This document shows, in pieces, positions 25,579 through 52,163 of a stretch of 64,000 nucleotides of DNA. The DNA comes from Candidatus Latescibacterota bacterium. Lineage in GTDB: Bacteria > Latescibacterota > UBA2968. Position 1 is the first letter of the stretch, and each line of letters begins with the position of its first letter. Location: the NCBI GenBank assembly GCA_965204375.1, contig OZ241986.1, positions 3,456,001 through 3,520,000 of the forward strand, written 5' to 3'. The position numbers were made by a program, and so were the translations under genes. Under the pieces are notes generated by a model. That model made no database searches. It saw only the letters and a list, made by a program, of their open reading frames with translations, and was not told the DNA's origin.

Positions 25579-28500
25579 ATGAATCGAATGTGTTTGCTGT
25601 TTATCATTTCCCTTTGCCTGGTATCTCAAGCCTTTGCGGGTACCACGGGGAAAGTTGCTGGCGTAATAAAAGACGCCAAATCGGGAGAAGTATTGCCCGG
25701 CGCAAACGTCGTCGTGATGGGCACCCGTCTGGGTGCGACGACAGACGCCGATGGCAACTATTTTATCCTCAATGTCCCACCCGGCATGCTGGAAGTACAG
25801 GCATCAATGGTGGGATATACAAAGGTCACGCAGACCGACGTCCGCGTAAAAATCGACCAGACTACAAAGCTCAATTTTGAACTGACCGAAGAAACCCTCG
25901 AAGCAGCCGAGATACTGGTCATGGCCGAACGCCCACCCGTAGAACTCGACCTCACGGGAAGCAAGCAGGCGCTGACGACGATGGACCTGGAATTGAGTTG
26001 GGCAAACTCTGTGGAAGAGGCCGTGGAAACCCAATCTGGGGTAGGGGTTCGGGGAAGTATCCGCGGAGGATACGGCTTCACCGCCGCCTATATTATAGAT
26101 GGTGTGGATGTGCGGGACGGCAATACCCAATCCAGCTTTGTCGTGACCAATACCGCGGCTATCCAGGAAATGGAAATACTCACGGGTGGATATAACGCGG
26201 AATACGGCCGGGCCAACGATGGGATCATCAACATCGTAACGCGATCAGCGCGAGACCGCTGGCACACGACTGCCAAAACGCGCATTCGCCCGCGCGGGAA
26301 GTACCACTGGGGCCGCAATATTTACAGCGAGGAAAATGTCGAAAACCAGGTTATCACCAAAGAGTTCTTCGACAAAAACGACATGGGAGCCTCCTGGAAT
26401 AACTACTGGACAGAACAGGGCCAAAATCCTACACCCGAGTTCAACTGGCAAAAATACCAGGAATTCACAACGCCACCGGAAGACATGGGCAATTACGCCG
26501 ATCTGGACCAGTGGGAGTGGGAAGGCGCTGCTTTCGGTCCCATCTCCTCCAATATGGATCTGTTGTTAAGCGGCAAGTATTTGCGAGGTGTAACCAGGTG
26601 GCCGAGCGTTTTCAAATACAGCCCCGAATGGAGCGCGCTCGCCAAATTGAATTACAACCTGACCCAGAACACCAAAATCACGGCATCGTTCAACCACCAG
26701 GGCACCGACAACAGTGGTCAACCCAGATTGTCTTACATGTCGTCCGACGATATGGGTGGTTCAATGGGGAATCTTCCATCGGGTGGAATCCGAACGCCTT
26801 TTCAGAGAGAGAAATGGAATTCGAATGGCAACAGCGTAATTACCGGCAATAACTCGCGCGTGCCGCCTCCACAGTATATTCGGACGAATGCGGCAATGTT
26901 AAAACTGACGCACGTCTTCAGTCCGCGCACATTTATGGATTTCCGCATTCAGCACTACCGAATGGATTACGACGCGCATTACGAAAACCTGGATACGAAT
27001 CCCGTCTTATTCCAGGACCAACTCGATCGAACCCCGGTGTTTTTGGAACCCACCTGGTTCCCCACCAGTCCGGTCAGCACTGGCGGACGGCGGTGGCAAT
27101 GGCCGAGAGATAACGCCAAACTGTTCGCCAATACCTGGCGAACATCAATCAATTTTGATCTGACCAGCCAGGTCAACGAACACAATCTGGTCAAGGCGGG
27201 CCTGTCATTCGATCCGCAGTATATCGATACCTGGTACGGTGGGCAATTTGGATCGGCTTCACAACCGTTTAACAAGGTGCCAAACAGGGATTATAGCCCC
27301 TGGGATTTCACCGCTTATGTGCAGGATCAAATCGAAGCCGAAGGCATGATCGTAAACCTCGGCTTGCGCCTGGACATGTTCAACGCCAACCGGAACGTGA
27401 ATTACATCCTGTGGGATCCCTACGCGCTGTCGAGTATTACCGATGGCAATATTGCGGGCGGAATTCTGTCCTTTGATCCGGACGGTCCCCATGCCGCCAA
27501 GACACCGCTACAGGTCGCGATTTCACCCCGCGTGGGCATCGCGCATCCCATTACCGCGAGCACTGTATTGCACTTTATGTACGGACATTTTAACCAGAGA
27601 CCTCCCTGGGTAAAAATTGCCGGGAATAAAGCCATCTGGAACCGCGGGGCACCCTCTGATCCGAGCGTTCAACTGCCACCCAACTACGATCCAAATCCCA
27701 ACGAGGATTACAACTATATCCACTGGTGGGGCACAGGTGGCAACCCGGAGATCGGGTTCGAAAAGATGATCCAGTACGAAGTGGGCTTTGATCAGGATAT
27801 TGCCGGTGTGCTCGGTTTAGATGTAACCATGTATTACAAGGACGCCAAGGATCTGACAAGGCGAGGCTTTCGACAGGGACGAGAGGAAGAAACCGGCAAC
27901 AGTTCAACGCTTCAATTCACTTTGTTTATGGATCCCAACAACCCGCAGAAGCAAACGCCTCAGAGTGGGTTTACCAACCGGGGCGCTTTCTCGATGGCGG
28001 GAGCACGCCTCGATGCACGCGGTCTGGAATTGGAATTGAGCACCAAGCGCTGGCAAAATGTGCGCCTCCAGCTCAAATACGACCTGTCCTATTCCAGCAC
28101 GGGCGCTTATGGCCCGACGAGCCTCTATATTCCCATCCAACAACCAGACGGTTCGATCAAGCAACTCGGACGGGATCGCTATCACGGATCCGGCGAGAAC
28201 AACCTCGAGTTGTGGAACCCGCACAACACGTTTAAGCTCAATGCATTGCTCAGCACGCCCAACAACTTCGGTCCGGTGATGGGGAACTGGTTCTTGAACA
28301 TGCACTACACCTACGCTTCGGCGCAGCGATACACCTATCATCCGCCCGGCGATACGAGCACCGAGCCGCTGAACCGGTCGTGGAAACCCTATCACCGCAC
28401 CAATGCGCGCCTCTCCAAGCGTTTCGAATTGGTGGGTGGAATGAAGGGCGAATTCGCAATAGACATACACAATGTCTTCAACAACAAAATCCTGAAACTG

Positions 28501-28677
28501 TTCGGCGGACAAGATTTGTTCAACTACATTGAAAAGGGCGAAATGCCCGTGATAAAAGCCTCCTATCTGACGCCAGATGGCACTTCAGCCGAATGGGTAG
28601 AGCCGAATCAGTGGACGATTTACCGCCCGGACCTGAATCCGAGAGAGTTGTTCTTCTCGCTGTCGATTGATTATTAG
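25579..28677 (+). CDS. TonB-dependent receptor with N-terminal carboxypeptidase-regulatory-like domain (module 1)
   Basis: Signal peptide, GTTGKVAG..GANV..GATTDADGNYFILNVPPG, plug IRGG...GGYNAEYG, SPRVGIAHP, terminal SLSIDY beta-signal. Confidence 0.92.
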   Translation: MNRMCLLFIISLCLVSQAFAGTTGKVAGVIKDAKSGEVLPGANVVVMGTRLGATTDADGNYFILNVPPGMLEVQASMVGYTKVTQTDVRVKIDQTTKLNFELTEETLEAAEILVMAERPPVELDLTGSKQALTTMDLELSWANSVEEAVETQSGVGVRGSIRGGYGFTAAYIIDGVDVRDGNTQSSFVVTNTAAIQEMEILTGGYNAEYGRANDGIINIVTRSARDRWHTTAKTRIRPRGKYHWGRNIYSEENVENQVITKEFFDKNDMGASWNNYWTEQGQNPTPEFNWQKYQEFTTPPEDMGNYADLDQWEWEGAAFGPISSNMDLLLSGKYLRGVTRWPSVFKYSPEWSALAKLNYNLTQNTKITASFNHQGTDNSGQPRLSYMSSDDMGGSMGNLPSGGIRTPFQREKWNSNGNSVITGNNSRVPPPQYIRTNAAMLKLTHVFSPRTFMDFRIQHYRMDYDAHYENLDTNPVLFQDQLDRTPVFLEPTWFPTSPVSTGGRRWQWPRDNAKLFANTWRTSINFDLTSQVNEHNLVKAGLSFDPQYIDTWYGGQFGSASQPFNKVPNRDYSPWDFTAYVQDQIEAEGMIVNLGLRLDMFNANRNVNYILWDPYALSSITDGNIAGGILSFDPDGPHAAKTPLQVAISPRVGIAHPITASTVLHFMYGHFNQRPPWVKIAGNKAIWNRGAPSDPSVQLPPNYDPNPNEDYNYIHWWGTGGNPEIGFEKMIQYEVGFDQDIAGVLGLDVTMYYKDAKDLTRRGFRQGREEETGNSSTLQFTLFMDPNNPQKQTPQSGFTNRGAFSMAGARLDARGLELELSTKRWQNVRLQLKYDLSYSSTGAYGPTSLYIPIQQPDGSIKQLGRDRYHGSGENNLELWNPHNTFKLNALLSTPNNFGPVMGNWFLNMHYTYASAQRYTYHPPGDTSTEPLNRSWKPYHRTNARLSKRFELVGGMKGEFAIDIHNVFNNKILKLFGGQDLFNYIEKGEMPVIKASYLTPDGTSAEWVEPNQWTIYRPDLNPRELFFSLSIDY

Positions 28678-28753
28678 CCAAATAGCCGGGTGTCGAGAGG
28701 AACGAACGATACCCGGCCTGCAATTCCCTTCTCAAACAACAAAGGAGTTTCTG

Positions 28754-30823
28754 ATGAATGCAATACGCAGGCTTCTCCCACTCTGGGTGATGTGCCTCGT
28801 GCTGATGTTGCCGGAGGTTGTAAATGCTCAGGTGCCCGAAAGCCAACTCGTGGGCAACAACCCAATTGAGTTTACCGCCGGAAGATTGTGGTGGGGCACG
28901 AGTACCGCGGCGAATTACGCAGAAACGGCGATTCCCAACGTCCTTTCATATCCTGGCTATTATCAAGCACCGGATCATATGGACATGATTGCGCCCTGGA
29001 TCTGGGTCAACAATCAGGGGCGACGGGTCAAGATCAATTTGACAGAACGAAGCATTGTGTCTTTTGGCGGTGCCGTAACGCCCATGGTAAACAATTACAA
29101 TTACAATTTCGTGGGACCAGGCGGCACCAACGAGGCCGAGCAATGGGGCGAAGGGGTTTTCCAGACGTTCAAAATGAATCCAGCCAGCCCGGCCGATCCG
29201 ATGGGAGCAATGCAGATCACCACCAAAACAATGGTGTGGAGTGTGCCCAAATACGACGATTTTGTCATCCACAAGATCAAGATCAAACATGTGGATGATG
29301 TACCATTTGAAGATTTCTACATGTGTTTTCCCGCTCAGGTTCAGTACAACAACGGTCAACTCGTGAACAACGCCTTCAAGTTCAAGAACGACATGCAATT
29401 CGACTGGGATCCGGAACGGAAAGTTTTCATATTCTACGACGATGTGCAGTGGCCGACCACGGAAAGCGCGCCCATTTCGTTTAACATATTCGAGCCGCCG
29501 GGAGACGTGACCGGCGATGGGGGCGACCCCGGCAATATCACCGAGGCCGGGTCTCTGGATCGCAGACTCTACGAACCAGAAGCCCGGGCATGGGGCATTC
29601 TAAATCTGACTTACAACGGTCAGCCCGAAGAACCCCATTACAATATCCTCGCTGCGGCTGAATCCGCAACACGGACGGGCAACTTCGCGGGCAGGATGAG
29701 CGATGCTCGCGTACCAGCGCGCGAATCCGGACGTCTGTGGGCAGGGCAAAGCTGGGAACAGGATTTGCTGGCATTTTCACACGATCAGGAGCGGGCGAGT
29801 TGGATTGACCTCTGGAACGACCCATCCCGTCCCAAAGACGGATCAGTGGATGGCAATCTCTTCGAGCGATCCCCCATGCTGTATTCCTACATTGGTCCCT
29901 ACAATTTTCAGCCCGGCGATGAAATTGAACTGATCATCCTCTATTGTTTTGGCGAGATGGACCGCAATGTGTCGCAACGCGGCGGATTAGAAGCCGCACA
30001 ACGATACCAGGCAGAAGGTATTGCTGCGTTGAAGCAAAACTGGGATTCGGCTCTGGAATTGATCGCCAACAACTACAAGCTGCCCGCCGATCAGTATCCG
30101 CCCCCTCTTGTGGGAACCCAGCCATTTGTCGAAGACGGATATCCCAAGCTGGAGGCTGAGCCATTTGCCGACGCCAGTACTGGAAAGCAGGGTTTCACCT
30201 TAACCTGGCAAGCCGTTCCAGACAATTACCAGGACCCGGGCACAGGTGAAAATGACTTTGCCGGATATCGGGTTTACCGATCAGAAATTCACATCACGGG
30301 TCCCTGGGAACTGCTTGAGGATATTTCCGCTTCAGAAGCCGCAGCTTATAAGCAGGGCGATAAGATCGCTTTTCAAGTCGAGACCGACCCCGGTATCCCC
30401 TTCCGCTTTGCGGTGACCTCCTACGATAGGCACGGACTGGAAAGCGGCATAACGGCCTATACGTTTTTCGCTACGGAAGCTCCCAAGGCGCCTTCGGATG
30501 ATATGACCCAGATCCGCGTGGTGCCCAATCCCTTCCGGCAGCGAAGCGGGTTGCTGGATGCATCTCAGAACAATCGCCTGGCTTTTGTAAATATCCCGGC
30601 CAAATGCACCATCCGGATTTACACGCTTGCGGGCGATTTAATAAAAATTATTGAACACGATGGTTTTGGAGAAACCACCTGGGGCAGTCAGGCCAATGGC
30701 AATTATCTCCAGACGGACTTTTCCGAAAGCCCAGCAGCCGGGCTTTACATCTATCACGTAACATCTCACGTAGCGGGACAAGAAGGCCAGTCTCACGTTG
30801 GGAAATTCATGATCATTCGATAA
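28754..30823 (+). CDS. large secreted protein with T9SS type-A-like C-terminal sorting domain (module 1)
   Basis: SPI signal ending NA-Q, FN3-like DFAGYRVYRS, C-terminal IRVVPNPF...IRIYTLAGDLI...GLYIYHV...GKFMIIR. Confidence 0.8.
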   Translation: MNAIRRLLPLWVMCLVLMLPEVVNAQVPESQLVGNNPIEFTAGRLWWGTSTAANYAETAIPNVLSYPGYYQAPDHMDMIAPWIWVNNQGRRVKINLTERSIVSFGGAVTPMVNNYNYNFVGPGGTNEAEQWGEGVFQTFKMNPASPADPMGAMQITTKTMVWSVPKYDDFVIHKIKIKHVDDVPFEDFYMCFPAQVQYNNGQLVNNAFKFKNDMQFDWDPERKVFIFYDDVQWPTTESAPISFNIFEPPGDVTGDGGDPGNITEAGSLDRRLYEPEARAWGILNLTYNGQPEEPHYNILAAAESATRTGNFAGRMSDARVPARESGRLWAGQSWEQDLLAFSHDQERASWIDLWNDPSRPKDGSVDGNLFERSPMLYSYIGPYNFQPGDEIELIILYCFGEMDRNVSQRGGLEAAQRYQAEGIAALKQNWDSALELIANNYKLPADQYPPPLVGTQPFVEDGYPKLEAEPFADASTGKQGFTLTWQAVPDNYQDPGTGENDFAGYRVYRSEIHITGPWELLEDISASEAAAYKQGDKIAFQVETDPGIPFRFAVTSYDRHGLESGITAYTFFATEAPKAPSDDMTQIRVVPNPFRQRSGLLDASQNNRLAFVNIPAKCTIRIYTLAGDLIKIIEHDGFGETTWGSQANGNYLQTDFSESPAAGLYIYHVTSHVAGQEGQSHVGKFMIIR

Positions 30824-30835
30824 ACGGAGGCTATA

Positions 30836-31909: not shown

Positions 31910-32085
31910 CGACGGGAAGGTATCCGCAGATAGACGCAGATAAAGGCGGATGAAAGGCGAAAGGCAAACCTTTCTGGATCGCCTGCCTGTGCATTGCACG
32001 CAGACAGGCGGCTAAAACCAGGCCGCTATGACGCATGCCTCGCCCCTACATCCGTGTTCATCCGTGGCTATTTTTGTTTTCACAC

Positions 32086-32128
32086 AGGCGCCTGACGGAG
32101 TACACTTATCCGTCGGCGCCTATTTTTT
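32086..32128 (+). terminator. intrinsic terminator-like hairpin after porV-1
   Basis: aggcgcc-tgacgga...tccgtc-ggcgcct followed by atttttt; 32/35 identical copy at 34202-34236. Confidence 0.7.
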
Positions 32129-32164
32129 ATCCAAAAATGTAAATGGGAAGATCCCCTTTTATTT

Positions 32165-34147
32165 ATGGCCCAATTACAAAGCGTTGAAACTTTAGAGACA
32201 GAGAGCCGGGTGCGTAAAACCGCTGTATTGGCTATGGTTGGCACGCTGGTATTCACATGTGCGATGTCAACCTATGTGGAACTGAGCACGCGATCCGGTC
32301 TCCTGGCAATGTCCAATCTGCCAATGACCGTATTATTGCCCTTTGTATTCTGGCTCCTGGGCAATTCCGTATTGAAGCGTTTTTGGCCCCGACTGTCCCT
32401 GTCCGCAACAGAGATGCGGATACTATTTTGCCTCTTGTGGGTCGGCGGCTTATTTGCCGGTTTTAACTGGGCAACGCAGTGGGCTGGCATGATGGCCGCA
32501 CCGCGTTATTTTGCATCGCCAGAGAACCGCTGGGAAGAACTGTACTTTGACGACTTGCCCAATTGGATGCTGCCGTTAAACACTCCGGGTGTGGTCGATG
32601 GCTTCTATCAAGGAATATGGTCCGGCGTACCCTGGGGCGCGTGGTTGGGACCGATCTTCTGGGCGGGATCCATCGCCCTTGCAATCACGGCAGTCGGATT
32701 GGGATTAACCGCATTATTCCAAAAACAATGGGCGCAACACGAGCGATTGGTCTATCCCCTCGCCGAAGTCTCCCTGGAACTCACCGAAGGATTTGACCGA
32801 AAACCGGGTTGGCCTGCCTTTATGCAAAACAAAGCATTTTGGGCGGGATTTTTTATCGCAGCACTCCCCCTCTTGTGGAACATCGCAGAATACTTCATCC
32901 CCGATTTTCCCCGCATTGCAATTTTTGACCCCATGTTCGGGCGAACCGGACGCAGAGGGGCACCCCTATCCCGATATTTGCCGCCATTTGCCTTCTCCTA
33001 TCGCATCCTGCCCACGCTGATGGGATTTACTTTTCTGTGCGATCTGAACATCCTGTTCAGCATCTGGTCGGTTTATCTCGTAGGGCTGGGGGCACAATAC
33101 GCCATGAACCGCGTGGGGTTCACAGTGGGAATGAGCGGGCAAGAAGCCGATGCGGGCGTCATAGTAAACCTTTTCTCGAACGGGGCGATGCTGGGACTGG
33201 CTCTCTGGGCAATATGGGCAGCACGCGGGCATCTGAAACGCGTCTGGAGACAGGTTCGCAGTCCAGTTGCAGGAGAAGCCCCCGAAACAATGATCCTGTC
33301 TCCGCGTAGCACTTTGCTGGTGCTTGCAAGTGGATTGCTCTATATGGCATTCTGGCTCTATCAGTCGGGCAACAGCCCATCAACGCTGATATTGTGGATG
33401 GCGGCATTCTGGATCGGCCTTTTTGTATCCATGAAGCTCGTGGCTGCCACTGGCTTCGCCTATTTATTTCCCTTTTGGGCAGGAGGAACAACCATACTGG
33501 GCGATATGTTTGTGGGCACGCGCAATATGTCCACACCCACGCTGGTAAGCACACACATGGTCAATCACCGTTTGCTGGCAGGCTGGCGCGTACCAACGGC
33601 ACTGCCCAATATAGAACGGACCATGGCGAGATCCACTAAGACAAACCGATTGATCTGGATCGGCGTCCTCCTCGGCGTGATCATCGGCGCTTCTTATACA
33701 GTCTGGCTGTGTTATACCTGGGGCGGAGCCAGCTTTCATTCCTGGGCACTGGAAGGTTCTGCACGCGAACGGTACAATATTATTGCCGGAGCGGTTGGCG
33801 ATACAGACCGATCTGTTCCAGACCTGGAAAAAACAGGCGTGTATTTATTGGGCACCCTGGGCGCGCTAATATTTGCCGTACTTCAGGCGAGAATCCCCTG
33901 GTGGCCCCTCCATCCCATGGGATTGATGGTGATGTATAGCTGGTACATGCGCATTTATATTCTGGACATTTTCCTGGTATGGCTGGCCAAATTGCTGGTT
34001 TTGAAATTCGGCGGGATCTTGCTCTACCGGCGGGTGCTCCCGTGTTGTTATGGGTTAATCGTGGGATTTGTATTTGCGATAGGAATCTCATTTCTCGTAG
34101 ATGTGATCTGGTTTCCCGATCAAGGACACGGGGTTCACGGGTGGTAA
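32165..34147 (+). CDS. DUF6785/DUF6784-like polytopic membrane protein, putative transporter (module 1)
   Basis: 660 aa, many TM helices, SPENRW, QWAQHERLVYPLA, WWPLHPMG motifs. Confidence 0.75.
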   Translation: MAQLQSVETLETESRVRKTAVLAMVGTLVFTCAMSTYVELSTRSGLLAMSNLPMTVLLPFVFWLLGNSVLKRFWPRLSLSATEMRILFCLLWVGGLFAGFNWATQWAGMMAAPRYFASPENRWEELYFDDLPNWMLPLNTPGVVDGFYQGIWSGVPWGAWLGPIFWAGSIALAITAVGLGLTALFQKQWAQHERLVYPLAEVSLELTEGFDRKPGWPAFMQNKAFWAGFFIAALPLLWNIAEYFIPDFPRIAIFDPMFGRTGRRGAPLSRYLPPFAFSYRILPTLMGFTFLCDLNILFSIWSVYLVGLGAQYAMNRVGFTVGMSGQEADAGVIVNLFSNGAMLGLALWAIWAARGHLKRVWRQVRSPVAGEAPETMILSPRSTLLVLASGLLYMAFWLYQSGNSPSTLILWMAAFWIGLFVSMKLVAATGFAYLFPFWAGGTTILGDMFVGTRNMSTPTLVSTHMVNHRLLAGWRVPTALPNIERTMARSTKTNRLIWIGVLLGVIIGASYTVWLCYTWGGASFHSWALEGSARERYNIIAGAVGDTDRSVPDLEKTGVYLLGTLGALIFAVLQARIPWWPLHPMGLMVMYSWYMRIYILDIFLVWLAKLLVLKFGGILLYRRVLPCCYGLIVGFVFAIGISFLVDVIWFPDQGHGVHGW

Positions 34148-34157
34148 TTAAATTTTT

Positions 34158-34188
34158 AAGGGGACCGGATGATCGGTTCCCTTTTTTT
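34158..34188 (+). terminator. intrinsic terminator after the module 1 membrane protein
   Basis: aaggggaccg...cggttccctt followed by a T tract. Confidence 0.75.
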
Positions 34189-34230
34189 ATTCAAAAGAAT
34201 CCACAGGCGTCTGGCGGAGTACACTCATCC

Positions 34231-34374
34231 GTCGGCACACAACTCGCCCTGGACGTACGGACGCGCTATAACGTCATTTTCGGTTACCTGAGGCCGCATC
34301 TGGCCTGGGGAATTGCTCAGACCTCGTTCTTTCAAATGCTGGACCTGGGCGTGGGTCTGAAATACTATTTTTAA
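34231..34374 (+). pseudogene. 3' remnant of an outer-membrane beta-barrel gene
   Basis: VGTQLALDVRTRYNVIFG...LDLGVGLKYYF*: alternating beta strands and a C-terminal aromatic beta-signal, with no 5' part. Confidence 0.65.
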
Positions 34375-34386
34375 GAGGAGGTTGCA

Positions 34387-37359
34387 ATGAGAAGACTTTC
34401 CTTATTAAGTCCTTTTCTGCTACTCCTGATCTGTCTATGTGCGGGAAATGCCTGGAGCGGTACAACGGGCAAGCTCACCGGCGTGGTATTAGATCAACGT
34501 GGGGAGCCACTTCCCGGCGCCAACGTCGTGATCAAAGAAATGCGGCGGGGCGCGAGCACAGATTCGGAAGGCAGATATTTTATTTTATCCGTAGATCCGG
34601 GCACATACCGGGTAGAAGCATCTCTGGTGGGCTATCAGTCCATCGCACAAGAAGATGTGAAGATGATTGTGGATTTTACCACAACGGTGGATTTTCGCCT
34701 GGAGGAAATGGTACTTGAAGGGGCAGAAATCGTAGTTGTGGCCGAGCGGCCCCTTGTTGAGCCGGACAAGACATCGACCAAATACGTGGTGACCTCCGAG
34801 GAGATCGAGGCATTGCCAATGGTGCGCAGTGCATCCGATTTTGCCGAGTTGCAAGGCGGTGTATCCGTAGATGGCAACTGGACGATCCGCGGTGGAGACG
34901 CGCCGGATGCCGCGGTGATTATCGACGGCGTCCGCCTGGTGAACAACGACCTCAGGGGATTTAACCGGTTTATGGGCGTGAACACCAACGCCATTGAGGA
35001 GTTGCAAGTCATCACCGGTGGGATGGAGGCGGAATACGGCAACGCACAGGCCGGGATTATCCGGATCGTGACGCGAGACGGCAGCAGCACATTGAGGGGC
35101 CTGGTAGAATACCGCAACACGCCGCCTTCTAAAAAGCACTGGGGGCCAAATATCTATGAGCACCCGACCGTACTCCAACAGGACCTGCCGGACAACGCCA
35201 CAAAGCTGGACTACACCAGCACCTTAGGGCATGAAGTAGATTTGAGCCTGTCGGGACCGCTGGTGGGTGGTCTGCAATTTTTTGCCAGCACCAAGTGGGA
35301 CGGCAGGGCACCGCGGTTTCCCGGGCCAACAACGCGGGTGCCGTGGAATACGCAGAACCACATGAAGTTAATCCAGCAGGTCAACCCCAATTTGAAGGTG
35401 CGCGTGGGGGGTCTGTTTGAGCGACACAAAGGCTACAACGGCGATTCCCGCGGCATTGGAAGCAGCTTCCGCAATTTGTACCTGCCCGACGATTTTGCCA
35501 CAGCCGGTCACCGGTGGAACCAGGAAGACATGATTTATTTATCAGCCACGCACACGATCACTTCTCGTACGTTTTACGAAATGCGTCTTTCGCGTTCTCA
35601 CAGCAGCATAGAAACGCAGAATGGCCCGACAGCTACTACAAAGTGGACCAGAAACGGTTATTTCAATATGGACCGCGCCTTTTTCCGCCCAGAGGACTCG
35701 GAGCGGATCCGGTGGAATCTGAAGGCGGACCTGTCCAGCCAGATAACGCGCTCCAACCTGATTAAAACGGGTCTGGATATTACGTATTACAACGTGTGGT
35801 GGACCTGGATTCAGCACGCCACTGAAGCGAACCGCACCATAAGGTTTATCGGCCGGGATCACAACATCGGCGAAGGGGTAAAACCCCTGGAAATAGCCCT
35901 GTACCTGCAGGACCGGATCGAATTTGAAGGCATTGTGCTCAATGCCGGCATCCGGTTGGACCGCTTCGACTTCCGCAGGAACGAACCGCATCCCTACCTG
36001 TGGGGCACCACGCCGATGTACGTGGGCCTGTTGCGCTTCCGCAATGCGCCGACCGAACCGGCCGAGCCGATGATTCGATGGAGCCCGCGCCTGGGCATCT
36101 CCCACCCGATTACCGCAAAGTCAACGCTTCGGTTTTTCTACGGCAAGTTCACCCAGCCGTTGCGATTTGACCACTGGTATCAGGAAGAGTGGGATTCCGG
36201 CACCACAGATGACCGCAATGGAGACGGCGTGGTGCAGGACTACGAATGGGGCAGTGGATATGTCAAGACACAGGGCCTGCTCCACGGGCACTCGGCATTC
36301 GCGCCTTATGAGCAGACCACGAGCTTTGAAGTCGGATTGGACTGGAACTTCGTGAGCGACTACGTGTTGAATCTGACCACGTATTACAAGAGCGCGATTG
36401 ACCAGTCGCGCGCGGGCAGCCAGACCAATTATCGCGATCCATTGAAGAACGGAAAAAACATCGTGGGACCTTCCCACAGGATGGCCGGGTATTCAGAGGA
36501 TAGTCGCGGGTTTGAGGTGAGCCTGAAAAAGCGGTTCTCCCACCACTTCGCCTTCCAGGTGGCATATAACGTGCAGTGGGCCACCGAAGACCAGTCGGGC
36601 TGGCGCGGTGCTTCCGCCTTCCCGGACTCGCTATTTATGGTCAGCGGTCTGTTCTGGCGACAACATACCTACGATCCGAATACCGGTATGGAGACACCCG
36701 TGCCAATGTCCGAATCCGAGATCGCGAAATTCGGCGCTCAGGCGAACAAAACCCTGCGCTCCTGGCAAGCTGGCGAAATCAGCCTCGCACCTTTCCGAAA
36801 GTCCTTCCCCGACCTGATGTACGAAGCGCCCAACGGGGGCAAGATGTGGCTCTTCATGACGCTTTCGGGTGGTCGTGAATCCAGGCCGCGCATCAACGCG
36901 GACCAGCGCGCTTTCGGCAGCATCCAGGTACTGGTATCCACCCCTGCGGACTTCGGCCCGACGCTCGGGAAGATAAAACCCCTGGGCAACTGGCGCTCCA
37001 ATGTCATCTATCGCCTGGATACGGGTACGCCGTTCCAGTATTCGCCCCCCGACGGGCCTACAGTGTGGGCAAATTCCCCGCTGCGGACCCGCACGGACAT
37101 GAGTCTGGAACGCAGTTTCTACATCAACCGCTATGAGGCGGTCTTTTACACGGAAATCAGCAATTTGTTCAACACCCAGGACTTGCGCAACAACAACCTG
37201 TTCGACAACAACCAGCCGCCGTTCGACTGGATGCAGTGGGGTTTGACCACACCGCGTCCGGGCAATGCGAAATTTGAGCAGTACGGAGACGAACTTGTGT
37301 TGAACCGGTATATGGGCGCCCCACGACATGTGGTGCTGGGTTTGAGGGTAAAATTCTAA
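34387..37359 (+). CDS. TonB-dependent receptor (module 2)
   Basis: GTTGKLTG..PGANV, IRGG, GGMEAEYGN, SPRLGISHP, terminal GLRVKF. Confidence 0.92.
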   Translation: MRRLSLLSPFLLLLICLCAGNAWSGTTGKLTGVVLDQRGEPLPGANVVIKEMRRGASTDSEGRYFILSVDPGTYRVEASLVGYQSIAQEDVKMIVDFTTTVDFRLEEMVLEGAEIVVVAERPLVEPDKTSTKYVVTSEEIEALPMVRSASDFAELQGGVSVDGNWTIRGGDAPDAAVIIDGVRLVNNDLRGFNRFMGVNTNAIEELQVITGGMEAEYGNAQAGIIRIVTRDGSSTLRGLVEYRNTPPSKKHWGPNIYEHPTVLQQDLPDNATKLDYTSTLGHEVDLSLSGPLVGGLQFFASTKWDGRAPRFPGPTTRVPWNTQNHMKLIQQVNPNLKVRVGGLFERHKGYNGDSRGIGSSFRNLYLPDDFATAGHRWNQEDMIYLSATHTITSRTFYEMRLSRSHSSIETQNGPTATTKWTRNGYFNMDRAFFRPEDSERIRWNLKADLSSQITRSNLIKTGLDITYYNVWWTWIQHATEANRTIRFIGRDHNIGEGVKPLEIALYLQDRIEFEGIVLNAGIRLDRFDFRRNEPHPYLWGTTPMYVGLLRFRNAPTEPAEPMIRWSPRLGISHPITAKSTLRFFYGKFTQPLRFDHWYQEEWDSGTTDDRNGDGVVQDYEWGSGYVKTQGLLHGHSAFAPYEQTTSFEVGLDWNFVSDYVLNLTTYYKSAIDQSRAGSQTNYRDPLKNGKNIVGPSHRMAGYSEDSRGFEVSLKKRFSHHFAFQVAYNVQWATEDQSGWRGASAFPDSLFMVSGLFWRQHTYDPNTGMETPVPMSESEIAKFGAQANKTLRSWQAGEISLAPFRKSFPDLMYEAPNGGKMWLFMTLSGGRESRPRINADQRAFGSIQVLVSTPADFGPTLGKIKPLGNWRSNVIYRLDTGTPFQYSPPDGPTVWANSPLRTRTDMSLERSFYINRYEAVFYTEISNLFNTQDLRNNNLFDNNQPPFDWMQWGLTTPRPGNAKFEQYGDELVLNRYMGAPRHVVLGLRVKF

Positions 37360-37398
37360 CGGCGACAATTTGTTGTCTCAATTAAAGGAGGTAGGACA

Positions 37399-39717
37399 AT
37401 GCGATTCAACGCACGTCCAATATTGTGGGGCCTTGCGGTAATGCTCGCGCTAATGCTGTGCGCGCCGAGCATTGTGCAGGCCCAGAGCATGGAATATCTC
37501 AACCGGGGCAAGCTGTGGGATGGCGTGGTTGAGAACGGTGGATCCGGAATGATCTTCAACTACCAGAAGATCTACGAGCGGATCGGCCTGGCCTATCCGG
37601 GCATGCTGCAGTTGAGCGGTTCGTATGGGTCGCGGAGTACCAAATGGTACCAGTCCTCTGGTCAGGGCGTCTGGATTCTCCTGAAAGATGGGGGAACCTA
37701 CGAGGTGTATTCCAGCGGCGGTCCGCGCTACAACAGCGATGGCGTTTTCCAGGTAGATTATCCCGCAGACCAGAAAGAAGAGCAGCATCAGGGCTATGAC
37801 AACCAACCCCTTAGCGACGACGCCTCGCTTTTGGAAACGCACGGCTTGCCGAGTTTTGTACAGCCCAACTACTGGGTAGGCGTGGCGCCGCCGAGTGCGC
37901 GTCCCGTGAATATCCACAACTGGACCTATGGGGAATACGCGACCCCGGATAAGGACAGCTATGGCGAGCAGGTCGTAATCGCCCATTGGCGGGCAGGCGA
38001 TATTCTGGGCACGCGCAAAGGCCGCGTGTGGAGCCATCCGGATTACGACGACTTCATCATATACGAGTTGACATTCGAGAACGTGGGTGACAAACCTTTG
38101 AACGACACGTACTTTGCGATGAACAACATCTTTCGGCCTGCACAGCCCGGACATATCTTCACGGGTGGCTATCCGCTCTGGTATGCCGGAACCAATACGG
38201 CTGCTTATGACGACCACTACAAATACACGGGATCGCCGGGCTATGTGGGGCCTTCAGGCGTATCTGCCGAGGCCATCGCAAAGGCTCGAATGAGCTATAG
38301 CTATGACGGGGATTATCCCCTCAGTCCACACGATGACAGGGGAGAGCCACTGGTCAAATCGCGTGAAGACCCGCGTTATCCACCGCAGATTGACCGCCCC
38401 GAAGGCACCCTGCTGTCGGCCGCGTACATTGGCTTTGCCACCATCGATGCAGATCCCACCGACGGATTTGCCCACGAGCCAGATGCAGCGTCTAAGTACG
38501 TAGCACCCAAAGTGGCAGAACAGCCCGTTTCGGTCAATTGGTACCAGGTGCGCAACCGGTCGGACTACGACGACCCGCACGAAGCGCAGCACTCAGACGA
38601 GCAGATGTACGACATGATCACGTCTCCAACGCCTTCTGACCCCACAGAAGTATCCGCATACGCCCACACCCAGGCCTGGGGACCTTATGACCTGGCACCG
38701 GGCGAGAAAGCCAAGGTGGTGACGGCTTATGTGGCTGCTCAGGCGTCTGGTCACGATAAGTACAAAGGCCAAGTCCAGCCCTACGACTGGTACTGGATGT
38801 TCGAAGGCAAAAAGGACGAAATCGATCTGGGCGAAGAAGTGCTCTTCAAACACCTGGAAAGGGCGCAAAATGCCTACGAACTGGACTACAACGTGCCCAA
38901 TCAGCCGCCAGATGTGTACTTCGAGATCCGCAGCAATGCCGACGGCAACTTTACCGTTAGCTGGTCTGGCGACGTGATGGACGCGCGCGATCCCGACTAC
39001 ACGGGCGCTGAGGCTCAGGACATAGCTGGTTTTCGCGTCTATGTGTCGCGTCAGGCTTTCTTCGGTCCATGGGAACTCGCCGTTGAGGTAAAGACCGATC
39101 CCGTCTCGGGGCCTGTCAACCTGCCCGATGGCGTGACCTATGACAGCGCGACCAACTTCTTCTCCTGGACGGATACCGGGTCCCTGCCCGGCTTTGCCTA
39201 TTGGTACATTGTGCGGGCCTTTGACAAGGGCCACGACCACTGGACAGGCGCCAATGGCAAAACCATGGCCGATCTGCCTCCCGATGTGCAGGACAATGTG
39301 CGCATGGGATTGGAAGGCGGACACAGTTCGCAAAACCAGATCAGCTATCACAACGGCGTCCGCCCCGTGGTGATTTCCAGTTCGGCATTCGACCGCATGG
39401 AAGTGCCAATTCAAGTGGTGCCCAATCCGTTCCATCTGACGGACAAGGCCGGCCACTACAAGGCATCGAAAAATATGCGGTTCACGGGGTTGCCGCGCCA
39501 TGCCCGCATCAGCATCTACTCTATATCGGGCAACTTGATCGTCACCAAAATCCACAACAACGCATCGCAAGGTGAGGCTGTGTGGAACCAGAACACGATG
39601 CATTCGGGCAACGTAACCGAGCGGCTCGGCAGCGGCGTGTATTTCTGGGTGGTGGAGTCCTTAGTTCCGGGCAGTGAAGGCAAAACGCAGACCGGTACAT
39701 TGATGATTATTCGATAA
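37399..39717 (+). CDS. large secreted protein with T9SS type-A-like C-terminal sorting domain (module 2)
   Basis: Signal ending QA-Q, WSHPDYDDFII, DIAGFRVYVS, C-terminal IQVVPNPF...ISIYSISGNLI...GVYFWVV...GTLMIIR. Confidence 0.8.
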   Translation: MRFNARPILWGLAVMLALMLCAPSIVQAQSMEYLNRGKLWDGVVENGGSGMIFNYQKIYERIGLAYPGMLQLSGSYGSRSTKWYQSSGQGVWILLKDGGTYEVYSSGGPRYNSDGVFQVDYPADQKEEQHQGYDNQPLSDDASLLETHGLPSFVQPNYWVGVAPPSARPVNIHNWTYGEYATPDKDSYGEQVVIAHWRAGDILGTRKGRVWSHPDYDDFIIYELTFENVGDKPLNDTYFAMNNIFRPAQPGHIFTGGYPLWYAGTNTAAYDDHYKYTGSPGYVGPSGVSAEAIAKARMSYSYDGDYPLSPHDDRGEPLVKSREDPRYPPQIDRPEGTLLSAAYIGFATIDADPTDGFAHEPDAASKYVAPKVAEQPVSVNWYQVRNRSDYDDPHEAQHSDEQMYDMITSPTPSDPTEVSAYAHTQAWGPYDLAPGEKAKVVTAYVAAQASGHDKYKGQVQPYDWYWMFEGKKDEIDLGEEVLFKHLERAQNAYELDYNVPNQPPDVYFEIRSNADGNFTVSWSGDVMDARDPDYTGAEAQDIAGFRVYVSRQAFFGPWELAVEVKTDPVSGPVNLPDGVTYDSATNFFSWTDTGSLPGFAYWYIVRAFDKGHDHWTGANGKTMADLPPDVQDNVRMGLEGGHSSQNQISYHNGVRPVVISSSAFDRMEVPIQVVPNPFHLTDKAGHYKASKNMRFTGLPRHARISIYSISGNLIVTKIHNNASQGEAVWNQNTMHSGNVTERLGSGVYFWVVESLVPGSEGKTQTGTLMIIR

Positions 39718-39735
39718 TGAGGAGGAGGCCAGGAC

Positions 39736-40725
39736 ATGAAAAGAAATACCCTCTTAATCGGACTGATTGTGGCCCTTATGGCTGGGCTTTCGGCCCCTCC
39801 TGTATTGGCCGAAGAAGTCAAGTCCGGTTTTCGGCGCACGGCATCTACCGGCTTTGGATTCCTGCTGGTGGGGCAAAGCGCGCGAGCCACGGCGATGGGC
39901 GAAGCCTATATACCTATCGCCAACGATATCAACGCGATTTTCTGGAATCCCGCGGGGCTGGTCGCCATCGAGCGCGGGGCTTTTTCCGCTACGTACACGC
40001 GCTGGCTGGTCAACTCGAAGCTGTATTCGGGTGCCGTGTCTTACAATATTCCATTCGGGACATTGGGCGTCAGCGTCATTTCGTTTGCACCTGAGCAATT
40101 TGAAGAGACCACGATCTTTGAGCCACAGGGCACGGGAGAGATGGTCAACGGCAATGGCACGGCGCTGGGGCTCGTATTTGCCAAGCGCCTGACCAATAAA
40201 TTGTCGTTTGGGCTGGAGGTGCGCTACTTGCAGCAGAACCTGCACAGAGAACAGATTACCCACATCGACTTCGGGGTATCCAGCATGTTTGCCACGGGCT
40301 TTGCCAGCAGCCGCATCGGCATGTCGCTGAAAAACTTCGGAGCAGACAAAGCCGTCGTGACCGATGACCCATTTCGGATGCCAATGGTGTTCAATTTTGG
40401 CGCTGCCATGGAAATTATCGGCAATTTGGGCGATCCGGTCTCATTGACATTATCGCTGGTAAATGCCTATAATCTGGAGGTAGAAAAAGAGCAATTCAGA
40501 ATAGGCACAGAATTGTGGTTACAAAATATGCTGGCTCTGCGCGCGGGCTATAAGTTCGACAAAGGTCTCTTTGGGTTCAACAGAGATATCTATAGCTGGT
40601 CTATCGGCGCGGGAGTCAAGCAGAGCTTCGCAGGGCGAAGTCTCGCAGTTGACTTCTCGTATGCGGCCGTGGAGGAAGTCGCGTTTTCCGCGCCGCTGCG
40701 ATTGACCCTTAGTGGAACATTCTGA
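39736..40725 (+). CDS. PorV/PorQ-family outer-membrane beta-barrel (module 2)
   Basis: FLLVGQSARATAMGEA...FWNPAG, LRAGY, terminal SGTF. Confidence 0.88.
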   Translation: MKRNTLLIGLIVALMAGLSAPPVLAEEVKSGFRRTASTGFGFLLVGQSARATAMGEAYIPIANDINAIFWNPAGLVAIERGAFSATYTRWLVNSKLYSGAVSYNIPFGTLGVSVISFAPEQFEETTIFEPQGTGEMVNGNGTALGLVFAKRLTNKLSFGLEVRYLQQNLHREQITHIDFGVSSMFATGFASSRIGMSLKNFGADKAVVTDDPFRMPMVFNFGAAMEIIGNLGDPVSLTLSLVNAYNLEVEKEQFRIGTELWLQNMLALRAGYKFDKGLFGFNRDIYSWSIGAGVKQSFAGRSLAVDFSYAAVEEVAFSAPLRLTLSGTF

Positions 40726-40757
40726 TGCGCTCATTGGCATAAAGCCCACGCATTTCT

Positions 40758-40795
40758 GGCGGCGGTCCAGCGAGGATAGGGCCGCCGCCTTTTTT
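40758..40795 (+). terminator. intrinsic terminator after porV-2
   Basis: ggcggcggtcc...gggccgccgcc followed by T6. Confidence 0.8.
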
Positions 40796-40826
40796 ATTAA
40801 GTCGGCTCGATATTAAAGGATCTGCC

Positions 40827-42791
40827 GTGGCGATTTCCGAACGCACAACTGAGGCACCAGAAACAGTTGTAGAACCCCAGGGAGTGACGCTCAGAGCCTT
40901 TATTCTGGCGATGATCACAATTGCAGGGGTGTGTATTTTCGCGACTTATTACGGGCGAAATTTGATGAAAAGTTTTTTGCCCGTAACCGCATTACTGCCC
41001 CTCGTGGTGTGGATCGGGATAAACACCGCGTTAAAACTAACAGCGCCCCGATTCGCCCTATCGCGCAGCGAAGTAGTGACCATTTTTGGGATCGTGTGGA
41101 TGGTATCTACGGTACCCGCAATCGGATGGGTGGGGTATTTAATCACGGATATTTCGGCACCCGCGGCCTTTTCATCACCCGAAAACCGATTCTGGGAAGT
41201 AGCGGGTCAGTACCTGCCTCGATGGTTATTTATGGATCGGGGAAGCGAAGTGGTAGAGCGGCTATACGTGGGATTGGGGCACAGAGATGAGATTCCCTGG
41301 GCGCACTGGGTCGTCCCGCTGTTCTGGTGGTTTGTGGGGAGTCTATCTCTGGTACTGGCCGGATTTTTTGCCAGCGTACTATTCTACAAACAGTGGCTGA
41401 TGCACGAGCGCCTGTCCTTTCCCCTCGCTGCCGTACCTCTGGCGCTTTTGGAAGAATCCGAGGGAAGCCGGGTTCCCGATGTATTCAAAGACTGGGTTTT
41501 CTGGGCCGGGTTTGCGTGTACAGCCGGCGTGATTTTCTGGAATATCACCGGCTATTTTGTCCTGACATTGCCCCGCATCACGATCTACGACCACTGGCTG
41601 ACCACAGCGGTAGATACGGGACAGTATATTCCCACCATCTATTTGCGCATTCACCCCCTGATGATGGGTCTGGCCTATTTGTGCCCGCTGAATATATTGA
41701 TGAGTTTCTGGTTTTTTTTCCTCGTCAATGCGTTTAAGATGACAGTGATGAACCGCACGGGCTTTACCATCGGGTTGCAGGGCCAGACAGCCGCGCCCGA
41801 AGAGATTTTGATGCTGGAGGCGCACGGCGCACTGGTTTTTCTCGTTCTCTGGTCAGTATGGGTGGCCCGAGATCACTTGAAAGAGACGCTACACAAGGCT
41901 TTCGGAGACCTGCGCTCACAAGACGACGGGGTGCCCGTATCCTATCGCACAGCCTGGCTGGGATTTTTAAGTGCCACAATTTTTTTCACCGGTTTTTTGC
42001 TCTCAATGGGCATCAGCCTACCCTCGGCAATGGTGCAGATGGGCCTGCTATTCGTCATCTACCTCGGCGTAACCAAATTTGCGGCAGCCACGGGCTACGT
42101 GTTCCTCGCGCCCCAGGGAGAAAAAGGGTGGCAGATTATGAAGGCCCTCTACGGGACATTAAATATTTCGAGCCGGGATTTGACGGGTTTGATAGTGGTG
42201 AGCCGAAACGCGCTCGCCGGAGCGCCAGCCCGAATGCTATCTGTGCCAGCAATTCCCCATTTTTTTAAGCTCCTGGGCAATGGGCTGCAGCGTTCCTGGG
42301 CTATCGTGGGTGTGTTGCCCGTTGCCCTCCTGGGGGCATTTGCAGTGGCCTGTGCCGCACAGCTCTATCTGTGTTACATGGAAGGCGGATTGAATCATGC
42401 CTATATGCCCGACTGGCGACACATGGTCAGGCAAGTGTCGCTGATTGAAGGGACACAGCCAGCGTATTTCGACCTGGACAAAACCATAGTGTGGTTTTTG
42501 GGTATTGCCGAGGCGGGATTATTGACGCTCTTGGGCATGCGGTACGCGGCCTGGCCAATTCACCCGTTCGGTCTGGCTTTTCCAGACAACCGATTTCGCT
42601 ATGGATTTGGGATATTCATCGTATGGCTGGCCAAGTCATTGACATTGCGCTTTGGCGGGGTGAGCCTCTACCGGCGATCACTGCCATTTTGGTATGGTAT
42701 TGTGGTGGGATATCTGGTGGGAGTGGGAGCTTCGACAGTAGTAGATGCGATCTGGTTTCCATTGAACCGACATTTTGTACACGGATGGTAA
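40827..42791 (+). CDS. DUF6785/DUF6784-like polytopic membrane protein (module 2)
   Basis: GVTLRA, SPENRFW, QWLMHERLSFPLA, WPIHPFG, ends HGW like its paralog. Confidence 0.75.
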   Translation: MAISERTTEAPETVVEPQGVTLRAFILAMITIAGVCIFATYYGRNLMKSFLPVTALLPLVVWIGINTALKLTAPRFALSRSEVVTIFGIVWMVSTVPAIGWVGYLITDISAPAAFSSPENRFWEVAGQYLPRWLFMDRGSEVVERLYVGLGHRDEIPWAHWVVPLFWWFVGSLSLVLAGFFASVLFYKQWLMHERLSFPLAAVPLALLEESEGSRVPDVFKDWVFWAGFACTAGVIFWNITGYFVLTLPRITIYDHWLTTAVDTGQYIPTIYLRIHPLMMGLAYLCPLNILMSFWFFFLVNAFKMTVMNRTGFTIGLQGQTAAPEEILMLEAHGALVFLVLWSVWVARDHLKETLHKAFGDLRSQDDGVPVSYRTAWLGFLSATIFFTGFLLSMGISLPSAMVQMGLLFVIYLGVTKFAAATGYVFLAPQGEKGWQIMKALYGTLNISSRDLTGLIVVSRNALAGAPARMLSVPAIPHFFKLLGNGLQRSWAIVGVLPVALLGAFAVACAAQLYLCYMEGGLNHAYMPDWRHMVRQVSLIEGTQPAYFDLDKTIVWFLGIAEAGLLTLLGMRYAAWPIHPFGLAFPDNRFRYGFGIFIVWLAKSLTLRFGGVSLYRRSLPFWYGIVVGYLVGVGASTVVDAIWFPLNRHFVHGW

Positions 42792-42803
42792 TGGAGGTGT
42801 GTC

Positions 42804-46930: not shown

Positions 46931-47193
46931 CAGAGTACTCCGATACGCGCGTTCATACAATAGATTCAGTTTTTGACAGAAGGTTCACGAATTTTTCACA
47001 ACTAACGTTTCTCTACGATCAAGTGTTCATTTTCGGACACCACTGTATCAAAATCGGACACTTTATAAGACCCTAATTTCAGGTAATTTTCGTAACCTAT
47101 TGTTATATCAATATTTGACTTTTCTGGCATAATTTTTGCTTCATAATTGTATAACCCATAGTACTTACCTCTCAATAGAGACGGAGGCCCGAT

Positions 47194-52134: not shown

Positions 52135-52163
52135 ATAACCAACGCTTCAAGATGGGGGGCAAA

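Follow-up and report, generated by a model that had tools for sequence, protein, structure and literature searches.

TonB-dependent receptors that work with a surface partner – SusC with SusD, RagA with RagB, BtuB with BtuG – underlie the success of the Bacteroidota in scavenging glycans, peptides and vitamins, and the partners of the characterised receptors are, to our knowledge, all lipoproteins. Here we describe a gene cassette in which a receptor gene is joined to genes of another kind. It lies in a stretch of 64,000 nucleotides (the window) from a Candidatus Latescibacterota bacterium, contig OZ241986.1, positions 3,456,001 to 3,520,000, and comprises a TonB-dependent receptor (A), a secreted beta-rich protein (B) with a tail like those of type IX secretion system (T9SS) cargo, and an outer-membrane barrel of the PorV/PorQ family (C). 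We propose that the three proteins form one outer-membrane uptake unit with a barrel-anchored surface partner, a reading to which we give roughly even chances.

Several described systems come close to this arrangement. In gut Bacteroides the TonB-dependent receptor BtuB is joined by BtuG, a tight surface capture protein that is not a SusD and is itself a lipoprotein (PMC10404256). Elsewhere a surface protein is tied to a barrel: PorZ is retained by its tail on PorQ, and PorU on PorV, the family barrel holding an uncleaved C-terminal domain (CTD), and cognate PorV-like barrels have been suggested to shield such tails from cleavage (reviewed in PMC10202324). Type B cargo of the T9SS stays on the surface bound to its carrier (PMC10994853, PMC10202324), the genes for cargo and private PorP/SprF-like carrier lying side by side, as with SprB and SprF, and in the Bacteroidota BAM complex a FadL/PorV-like barrel of 14 strands, BamG, holds the surface protein BamH by extracellular loops, outside secretion (PMC12578637). 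Neither BtuB–BtuG nor BamG–BamH is reported, in the sections of those papers open to us, to combine receptor, T9SS-tailed partner and barrel in one cassette. The cassette described here works like SusCD, RagAB or BtuBG and like PorQ–PorZ or type B cargo, yet is a member of none: A misses the cut-off of the SusC model, SusD is absent, and C falls short of the equivalog models as the tail of B does of the curated tail models. A literature search (subscription-only papers and bioRxiv supplements lay outside it) yielded no description of the A-B-C cassette, of DUF6785, or of PorV-family genes beside receptor genes; the cassette is widely distributed and unannotated.

Nine consecutive plus-strand genes (25579–45293) stand in the window in the order A1 B1 C1 D1 A2 B2 C2 D2 E, the order A-B-C-D occurring twice in tandem, at 25579–34147 and 34387–42791 (Table 1). 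Gaps are 76 nt between A1 and B1, 12 nt between B1 and C1, 39 nt between A2 and B2 and 18 nt between B2 and C2. The longest open reading frame (ORF) for B1 begins at 28667; we set the start at the ATG at 28754 because an AAGGAG-like site precedes it and a signal peptide follows. Copies of the same gene are far apart in sequence: A1 and A2 are 28% identical (E 4e-81), C1 and C2 27% (E 2e-27) and D1 and D2 34% (E 3e-99), while B1 and B2 align at 26% over 366 alignment columns covering the C-terminal ~45% of each (E 4e-20) and share in addition a 42-residue N-terminal patch. The two sets are, to judge from these identities, old duplicates.

Table 1. Features of the two tandem gene sets and the adjoining gene (positions in the window)
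Feature	Position	Strand	Description
A1	25579..28677	+	TonB-dependent receptor, 1032 aa
B1	28754..30823	+	secreted beta-rich partner, 689 aa
C1	30836..31909	+	PorV/PorQ-family outer-membrane barrel, 357 aa; signal peptide ends ..GFAQ
Hairpin and U-run 3' of C1	32086..32130	+	terminator-like; folded, sequence read directly
D1	32165..34147	+	DUF6785/DUF6784 polytopic membrane protein, 660 aa; OPT/YS1-like fold
Hairpin and U-run 3' of D1	34158..34193	+	terminator-like; 11-pair stem
A2	34387..37359	+	second TonB-dependent receptor, 990 aa; A1-type architecture
B2	37399..39717	+	second partner protein, 772 aa; signal peptide ..IVQAQ
C2	39736..40725	+	second PorV/PorQ-family barrel, 329 aa
Hairpin and U-run 3' of C2	40758..40797	+	terminator-like; folded, sequence read directly
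D2	40827..42791	+	second DUF6785/DUF6784 protein, 654 aa
E	42804..45293	+	TPR and GWxTD-domain protein, 829 aa; 12 nt past D2

An initial annotation of this DNA, made from the sequence alone, had pointed to the repeated A-B-C-D order with strongly diverged paralogues, to a terminator-like hairpin after each porV gene and to the lack of a SusD-like lipoprotein; on all three points it holds. The hairpin after C1 (32086–32121) folds at -24.3 kcal/mol (z -7.0; equalled by 0 of 200 shuffles), that after C2 (40758–40789) at -25.0 kcal/mol (z -3.0), and a further one after D1 (34158–34183) at -16.4 kcal/mol (z -2.7). An inverted-repeat search run with tight limits had missed the hairpins; those after C1 and C2 were read from the sequence and folded, and a scan brought out the 11-pair stem after D1. 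Given the hairpins after C, each four-gene set probably comprises two transcription units, A-B-C and D. No Pfam match to SusD_RagB or a SusD-like family was obtained in the 42 window ORFs scanned, and the remaining 8 (95–116 aa, outside the Pfam scan) are too short for a SusD. A polysaccharide utilisation locus in the strict sense, with adjacent susC-like and susD-like genes, is accordingly not seen in the window, where the gene after A is B.

The strongest evidence that A, B and C belong together comes from their conservation. A search with B1 returned 37 relatives, a few of them partial, matched over 68–100% of its length; none of the 37 holds a Pfam domain. Scanning representative genomes with a profile of 36 B proteins confirmed 190 relatives, and the best 80 of the 190, which make up 69 loci, were taken further, all locus ORFs being searched with the nine window proteins (phmmer). 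By label these loci belong to Latescibacterota (21), Rhodothermales (19), other Bacteroidota (8), Ignavibacteriota (12), Calditrichota (2) and KSB1 (2), with 5 from unclassified or oddly labelled bins. C lies directly 3' of B in 69/69 loci and A, by phmmer, directly 5' of B in 65/69. Two of the other four (L015, L044) have no upstream DNA, one (L052) has an 844-residue Plug-domain receptor in the position of A, and in the last (L067) A is present as frame-broken pieces; a receptor gene thus stands 5' of B in all 67 loci that include upstream DNA. When the 790 ORFs of the 69 loci were clustered, only A, B and C were common to all lineages. The order exceeds chance, since it recurs in 69 loci from several phyla. 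It is kept in Latescibacterota, Calditrichota, KSB1 and Ignavibacteriota, where the initial annotation had suggested looking for it, and in Rhodothermales also. Tandem cassettes are found in close relatives (L002, L004, L006, L014) and in one Ignavibacteriaceae contig (overlapping loci L042 and L053), and several complete Latescibacterota chromosomes (L026, L029, L034, L040) hold a third, unlinked copy. The conserved unit is one of three genes, A-B-C, and not four.

A few of the loci are unusual in themselves. In two loci from a single Ignavibacteriota metagenome-assembled genome (MAG), L059 and L067, the receptor and C genes are split into overlapping ORF pieces, as is B in L067, which suggests assembly frame errors or decaying copies. 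One contig labelled Rhodothermaceae has a cassette that is 71% identical to B1 of the window, in the manner of Latescibacterota; cassettes also occur in an 'Actinomycetota' bin and on a 'Chitinophaga pinensis' MAG contig. These odd labels (L016, L037, L054) are probably artefacts of binning or labelling.

Receptor A begins with a carboxypeptidase-regulatory-like domain, followed by a plug and a large, divergent barrel. Pfam places PF13620/PF13715 at residues 26–114 and the Plug at 124–212 of A1, finds PF13620/PF13715 and Plug in A2, and detects PF13620/PF13715 with PF07715 in 6/7 further A proteins scanned as in A1 and A2; the seventh (L052) gives the Plug match alone, and the A of L049 carries an STN domain as well. 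Against PDB chains (sequence, E up to 0.001) A1 matched only a carboxypeptidase D domain. Its nearest Atlas clusters bear the automatic name 'TonB-dependent receptor family', which we take as a lead only, and come from Fidelibacterota, Ignavibacteriota, Rhodothermota and Calditrichota. With its N-terminal extension, plug and large barrel, and with the gene for a non-barrel partner directly next to it, A resembles the receptors of the SusC/SusD and RagA/RagB pairs. Like SusC/SusD, too, the cassette is set among glycan-degrading enzymes, sulfatases, kinases and regulators, two loci standing under an extracytoplasmic function (ECF) sigma/anti-sigma pair with an STN domain. The differences are nonetheless considerable: B is beta-rich with a T9SS-type tail and no lipobox, whereas SusD is a helical lipoprotein; the cassette always has a third gene, for a PorV-family barrel; A scores far below the SusC/RagA cut-off; and some Rhodothermales cassettes lie beside a true SusCD pair.

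The partner, B, belongs to no Pfam or NCBIfam family that we could detect in B1. A structure model of B1 (pLDDT 81, pTM 0.83) shows, behind a signal peptide (..VVNAQ), a beta-sandwich N-domain (~30–440) that takes in a long helix at 412–438, then an FN3-like domain (~465–560) and a C-terminal domain of T9SS type (~585–689), whose tail has seven strands at residues 588–687; a seven-stranded fold is that given for T9SS tails in PMC10994853. Fold searches against the PDB gave weak, partial matches (TM 0.13–0.27), to the N-terminal sandwiches of GH116, GH94 and GH149 enzymes and to FN3 pairs, from which a function for B1 cannot be read; no catalytic domain is evident in the model. B2 differs from B1 largely in its N-domain, the FN3-like domain and tail being common to both. 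Signal peptides of B end mostly in A/S-Q, and a lipobox-like motif is present in 1/36 B proteins; B is therefore not a lipoprotein and needs another anchor.

That anchor may be sought in the tail, where conservation within B is highest: the last 120 residues have a mean column identity of 65% (44 sequences), as against 40% for the whole of B (36-protein profile). When the 44 B tails were aligned by hhalign with 23 tails from neighbouring Ignavibacteriota and Bacteroidota genes, all 23 of which pass TIGR04183, the match reached a probability of 96% (E 4e-9, 78 aligned columns), with the PNPF, central and C-terminal motifs in register and three inserted segments in the B tail. Because of this match, and because the comparison tails pass TIGR04183, the B tail is best described as a type A T9SS tail of a divergent subclass, sequence homology being the basis of the assignment. 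The T9SS-type cargo proposed in the initial annotation therefore stands as to the kind of tail, with its hhalign match and seven modelled strands, and not as to the curated tail models, which it does not pass. Searched against PDB chain sequences, the B-tail profile returned nothing at E up to 10.

Proteins with B-like C-terminal halves are numerous. Run against the whole library, the B profile retrieved 5573 representative proteins at E<=1e-3, 2310 at 1e-10 and 174 at 1e-30, many of which match only from about profile position 350 on, behind different N-terminal regions – the pattern that B1 and B2 themselves display. Of 150 listed distant relatives 36 were scanned with Pfam: none has a domain above cut-off in its B-like part, 30 have no match at all, and sub-threshold tail matches are to CHU_C (3), Por_Secre_tail (1) and FlgD_ig (1). 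The Atlas name of the B-like cluster, 'putative T9SS C-terminal target domain-containing protein', is automatic and serves as a lead only.

Barrel C is firmly placed at the level of family. C1 and C2 pass the PorV/PorQ family model NF033709 (169.9 and 163.4 bits; cut-off 90), and neither reaches the equivalog models for PorV (NF033710, cut-off 250: 33.6 and 72.2 bits) or PorQ (NF033711, cut-off 220: 106.5 and 54.2 bits). C2 also passes Pfam PorV, PF19572 (35.7 bits, cut-off 27), and a profile of 34 C proteins matched a single entry among PDB sequences, PorV 6h3i_F (E 2e-9). The cassette thus shares with PorQ–PorZ and PorV–PorU a family barrel that is predicted to bind its partner's tail, and departs from them in that C scores too low for either equivalog model, outside its tail B has no relationship to PorZ or PorU, and the genes for B and C are joined by that of a TonB-dependent receptor, lie in catabolic loci and occur as several diverged copies in a genome. 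From SprB–SprF it differs in that the B tail aligns with type A tails, the type B model CHU_C appearing, below threshold, in 3/36 distant relatives only; in that C is of the PorV/PorQ and not the PorP/SprF family; and in that a receptor gene is part of the unit.

Binding of the B1 tail to C1 is supported by a predicted complex. With C1 residues 28–357 (34 aligned rows) and the 120-residue B1 tail as input, the score was 0.90 in each of three runs and at best 0.00 in three controls, the mark set for this score being reached by 116/157 solved complexes and 2/215 mismatched pairs, a calibration that is only rough for alignments which, like ours, were built by the authors. The runs share at least 84% of contacts, with a partner pLDDT of at least 77. 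A CTD–PorV interface of the kind foreseen in the initial annotation is in this way predicted for the cognate pair. On the barrel side the modelled interface is enriched in columns conserved at >=90% (15/43 against 55/287 elsewhere; Fisher p 0.027), and C1 and C2 are 16% identical at the interface and 26% elsewhere, a pattern that fits what would be expected of cognate pairing. Invariant residues of the B tail also lie outside the predicted interface, in the B-specific inserts (H66, G70, W74, S102, V104 and G106 in the alignment labelled A2), and hint at a second conserved contact, possibly with A.

Since PorV belongs to the FadL superfamily (PMC12578637), one might suppose instead that C is a FadL-like channel for a hydrophobic or amphipathic compound and B a periplasmic or surface accessory unrelated to the T9SS, the likeness of its tail reflecting a common Ig-like fold and nothing else. 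BamG, a FadL-like barrel that holds BamH without a role in the T9SS (PMC12578637), would be a precedent, and C2 has a weak match to Toluene_X (FadL/TodX, PF03349), at 25.6 bits, under the gathering cut-off of 29.7; C1 has none. However, both barrels pass the PorV/PorQ model and fail that for FadL, the hhalign match covers the PNPF, central and C-terminal motifs in register, and it is the B tail itself that enters the predicted interface, all of which makes such an arrangement highly improbable. A FadL-type identity for C was rejected on the first of these grounds together with the PDB match, to PorV alone, and the initial annotation was right to place the barrels with PorV.

The uptake unit that we propose would work as follows. 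A would be a SusC-style TonB-dependent receptor importing an oligomeric nutrient. Sec would export B, whose CTD would then most likely lead it out through the type IX translocon; its tail, uncleaved and with no lipid anchor, would be held at the cell surface by the co-encoded barrel C, and its variable beta-sandwich N-domain would bind substrate near the mouth of A. In this Latescibacterota lineage a separately transcribed, OPT-fold D would move the product across the inner membrane. The initial annotation had seen here a SusD-free analogue of a polysaccharide utilisation locus, built of T9SS parts. Its receptor, type IX-tailed partner and PorV-family barrel, with a predicted interface between the last two, survive in our proposal; the fourth gene and the idea of a simple replacement for SusD do not.

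The main rival to this proposal takes B as an ordinary T9SS surface or secreted product with C as its carrier, serving the same pathway as A and forming no complex with it – comparable to a surface glycan-binding protein and not to SusD – in which case B could be a glycan-binding protein, an adhesin or an unrecognised enzyme. The pairing of tail and barrel is directly supported, while contact between A and B is not; type B cargo with private PorP/SprF-like carriers offers a precedent (PMC10202324, PMC10994853); Ignavibacteriota loci hold many other proteins with type A tails; and many of the 5573 B-like representatives share just the C-terminal half behind different N-domains. Yet B never occurs without a receptor gene directly 5' of it where upstream DNA is included (67/67), very little DNA separates the genes, the three have been duplicated together (the window, L002, L004, L006, L014 and L042/L053), and the invariant tail residues away from C hint at a further contact. 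On balance we think it unlikely, if a serious contender, that B and C act without touching A.

Genes around the cassette bear on the direction of transport and on the substrate. Flanks scanned in eight loci hold sulfatases, GH2, GH39 and GH113 enzymes, CBM96 proteins, esterases, a LacI regulator, FGGY kinases and an aldolase; 25/69 loci have sulfatases. In L049 and L056 ECF sigma and FecR genes lie directly 5' of the cassette and A has an STN domain, a combination that is the signalling form of import receptors. Conserved neighbours in Latescibacterota are a class III aminotransferase, a short-chain dehydrogenase/reductase and a PhyH-type dioxygenase, and an M14 peptidase, a creatininase-family amidohydrolase and a sulfatase are also found near the cassette there. 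For Ignavibacteriota and Rhodothermales the substrate is likely to be glycans; in Latescibacterota peptides or amino-sugar compounds are as likely as glycans in view of the neighbouring genes and the OPT fold of D.

This setting also bears on the notion that A works outward, helping to export B or insert it at the surface, with C as the final anchor and no need of a T9SS. In Myxococcus the receptor Oar reportedly acts in the export of the protease PopC, and Oar-type receptors, like A, carry a carboxypeptidase-regulatory-like N-terminal domain; A misses the SusC/RagA cut-off, no T9SS core gene was seen in the window (the window alone being considered), and an outward role would explain the strict adjacency of A and B. 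The B tail is, however, homologous to type A tails and C to PorV, parts that already offer a way out of the cell in lineages such as Ignavibacteriota, whose loci also hold genuine type A cargo; and the neighbours are catabolic enzymes and kinases, with STN, ECF sigma and FecR, typical of substrate-sensing import receptors, at two loci. We regard an outward-working A as very unlikely.

A canonical SusC/SusD pair stands a few kb 5' of the cassette in at least five Rhodothermales-type loci. The cassette is therefore an addition to SusCD and not only a substitute for it, and the SusD-free system of the initial annotation describes the window, where there is no SusD, and not the family as a whole. 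Surroundings of this kind are seen, for example, in L020 (L020:15-3577 and L020:19660-20895), and similar ones in L021, L027, L035, L046 and L051. On the 3' side of the cassette 16 loci have two sulfatases, an ankyrin-repeat protein and a protein with DUF6786 (PF20583, 529 bits in L020). The Melioribacter genome paper, in the sections open to us, mentions only a classical SusCDE operon (PMC3534657).

What, then, of D? Both copies pass the gathering cut-offs (25 and 26.4 bits) of PF20581 and PF20580, D1 at 253.6 and 68.3 bits and D2 at 274.7 and 49 bits, and no other Pfam family was found at E up to 0.01. A model of D1 (pLDDT 88.7, pTM 0.89) matched barley YS1 over the whole chain (7wsr_A, E 6e-8, TM 0.62/0.67), the only significant match in the PDB, the next-best standing at TM ~0.1. 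At the level of sequence a D profile found nothing in the PDB at E up to 10, and D does not fall within the OPT/Yellow Stripe-like family: it shares with these transporters a fold only. Going by the D1 model, DUF6785/DUF6784 proteins can be described as OPT-fold transporters. The inner-membrane transporter of the initial annotation is thus borne out in that D1 has the fold of an OPT-family protein, YS1, and set aside in that D lies outside the conserved unit.

It could still be that the four-gene module is functional, D being an obligatory inner-membrane partner of each A-B-C set. The window has a D paralogue behind each set, the fold of D is that of a transporter, and D occurs within 10 kb of the cassette in 16/21 Latescibacterota loci. 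But D is absent from all 48 loci of other labels and from 5/21 of Latescibacterota, including L002, whose B1 is 99% identical to that of the window and whose two cassettes have between them a protein of unknown family, a sulfatase and a small barrel protein in place of D; strong hairpins part C from D; the distance of D varies, as does its strand (in L026, L029, L034 and L040 it stands on the opposite strand beside a GWxTD gene); and it pairs more regularly with the GWxTD protein than with the cassette. An obligatory D is quite unlikely on this evidence, and the four-gene unit of the initial annotation was given up for one of three genes on account of the variable linkage, distance and strand of D and the hairpin between C and D. 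E travels with D and not with A-B-C: the DUF6785/DUF6784–GWxTD pair (window 40827–45293; L026:3017-6405 on the minus strand, and likewise in L029, L034 and L040) may form a separate unit that does not depend on the receptor cassette.

A further gene is of note at the 3' side of C. In 15 Latescibacterota loci C is directly followed by a protein of 458–515 aa without Pfam or NCBIfam match (for instance L001:13226-14638, L002:13264-14811 and L009:13221-14597), among them loci whose B1 is 98–99% identical to that of the window, where the same place (31910–32164) is taken by a 255-nt spacer with the hairpin only. The gene was either lost in the window or inserted in its relatives.

A number of observations weigh against the proposed uptake unit and should be set beside those in its favour. 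On the side of the receptor, A1 and A2 score 67.3 and 59.4 bits under the SusC/RagA model TIGR04056 (cut-off 368 bits), with alignments confined to about the first 290 and 235 residues; it is the adjacency of the genes that suggests B as a 'lid' of A, and the N-domain, for which we conjecture a binding role, resembles known folds weakly (TM 0.22–0.27). As to the tail, Pfam found neither a tail domain nor any domain above cut-off in the B-like part of 36 B proteins; under TIGR04183 and PF18962 (cut-offs 23 and 27 bits) B1 has no match, B2 showing sub-threshold likeness to TIGR04183 (16.7 bits) and to a PorZ tail at residues 691–763; and among the same 36 proteins NCBIfam matched TIGR04183 in 3 and a PorU tail region in 13, all below threshold. 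(A special likeness to the PorU tail was rejected, for 17/23 ordinary type A tails match that model too.) Neither Pfam nor NCBIfam revealed a T9SS core gene in the 64-kb window, our literature search found no paper treating the T9SS in Latescibacteria, and dependence of B on such a system is a conjecture in this phylum. The high complex score may in part reflect likeness to CTD–PorV complexes already solved (8gl6 and others; PMC10994853). On the B side the modelled interface shows no enrichment in conserved columns (11/38 against 20/82, p 0.66), and the identity of B1 and B2 is higher at the interface (42%) than in the remainder (24%), which weakens strict privacy of the predicted B–C pairs: of the private PorV imagined in the initial annotation, the divergence on the C side speaks for cognate pairing and the likeness on the B side against its being exclusive. 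To these must be added the patchy linkage of D and the presence of true SusC/SusD pairs beside some cassettes, described above.

The window holds other features that lie apart from the cassettes. Four consecutive genes at 47194–56948 encode duplicated MacB_PCD and FtsX permeases of 787–821 aa, the first of which scores 304.9 bits with the ADOP family model, below its cut-off of 622.3; a fifth MacB_PCD and FtsX gene lies upstream on the minus strand (8707–11184). A minus-strand gene at 45773–46960 joins an ECF-type sigma factor to a 3-keto-disaccharide hydrolase (DUF1080-like) domain, a fusion that recurs in L003, L005, L007 and L017, and a stand-alone copy of the hydrolase domain lies 5' of the cassette (21048–21617). 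An IS605 OrfB/Cas12f1-like TNB (TnpB-type) gene is found at 58058–59182, with a related copy near the cassette at L001:18124-19245. Base composition varies along the window: over ~8–22 kb GC skew lies near -0.2 and AT skew reaches +0.27, and GC content peaks at 0.60 at 6–8 kb, is 0.51–0.57 across the cassettes and falls to 0.42–0.46 beyond 50 kb, the low-GC end holding an HNH endonuclease, NUDIX proteins, a DUF3368 protein and an ankyrin-repeat protein. Towards the 5' end (~2–5.5 kb) there are a DNA methylase and a SocA/Panacea antitoxin domain, and an ORF of 907 aa at 12127–14850 has no Pfam match at E up to 1e-4.

More broadly, and with a probability that we put somewhat short of even, the cassette may represent a large and so far undescribed class found across the Fibrobacterota–Chlorobiota–Bacteroidota (FCB) superphylum, in which the partner of a receptor, no lipoprotein, is exported by the type IX route and held non-covalently, by way of a specialised CTD that stays uncleaved, on a dedicated PorV-family barrel, interchangeable N-domains setting the substrate. 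Were this true, it would be a third way to build the 'lid' of a receptor, besides lipoproteins of the SusD and BtuG types, and could account for polymer capture in FCB lineages poor in SusD. PorV-family barrels would become permanent structural subunits of uptake complexes, the roles of barrel and T9SS tail widening from secretion to the assembly of such complexes. The superfamily of B, which runs to thousands of sequence clusters (5573 representatives at E<=1e-3) and lacks a Pfam model, would gain a name and a testable role, and annotation in the style of polysaccharide utilisation loci would improve for the uncultured marine and sediment bacteria in which searches for susD find nothing.

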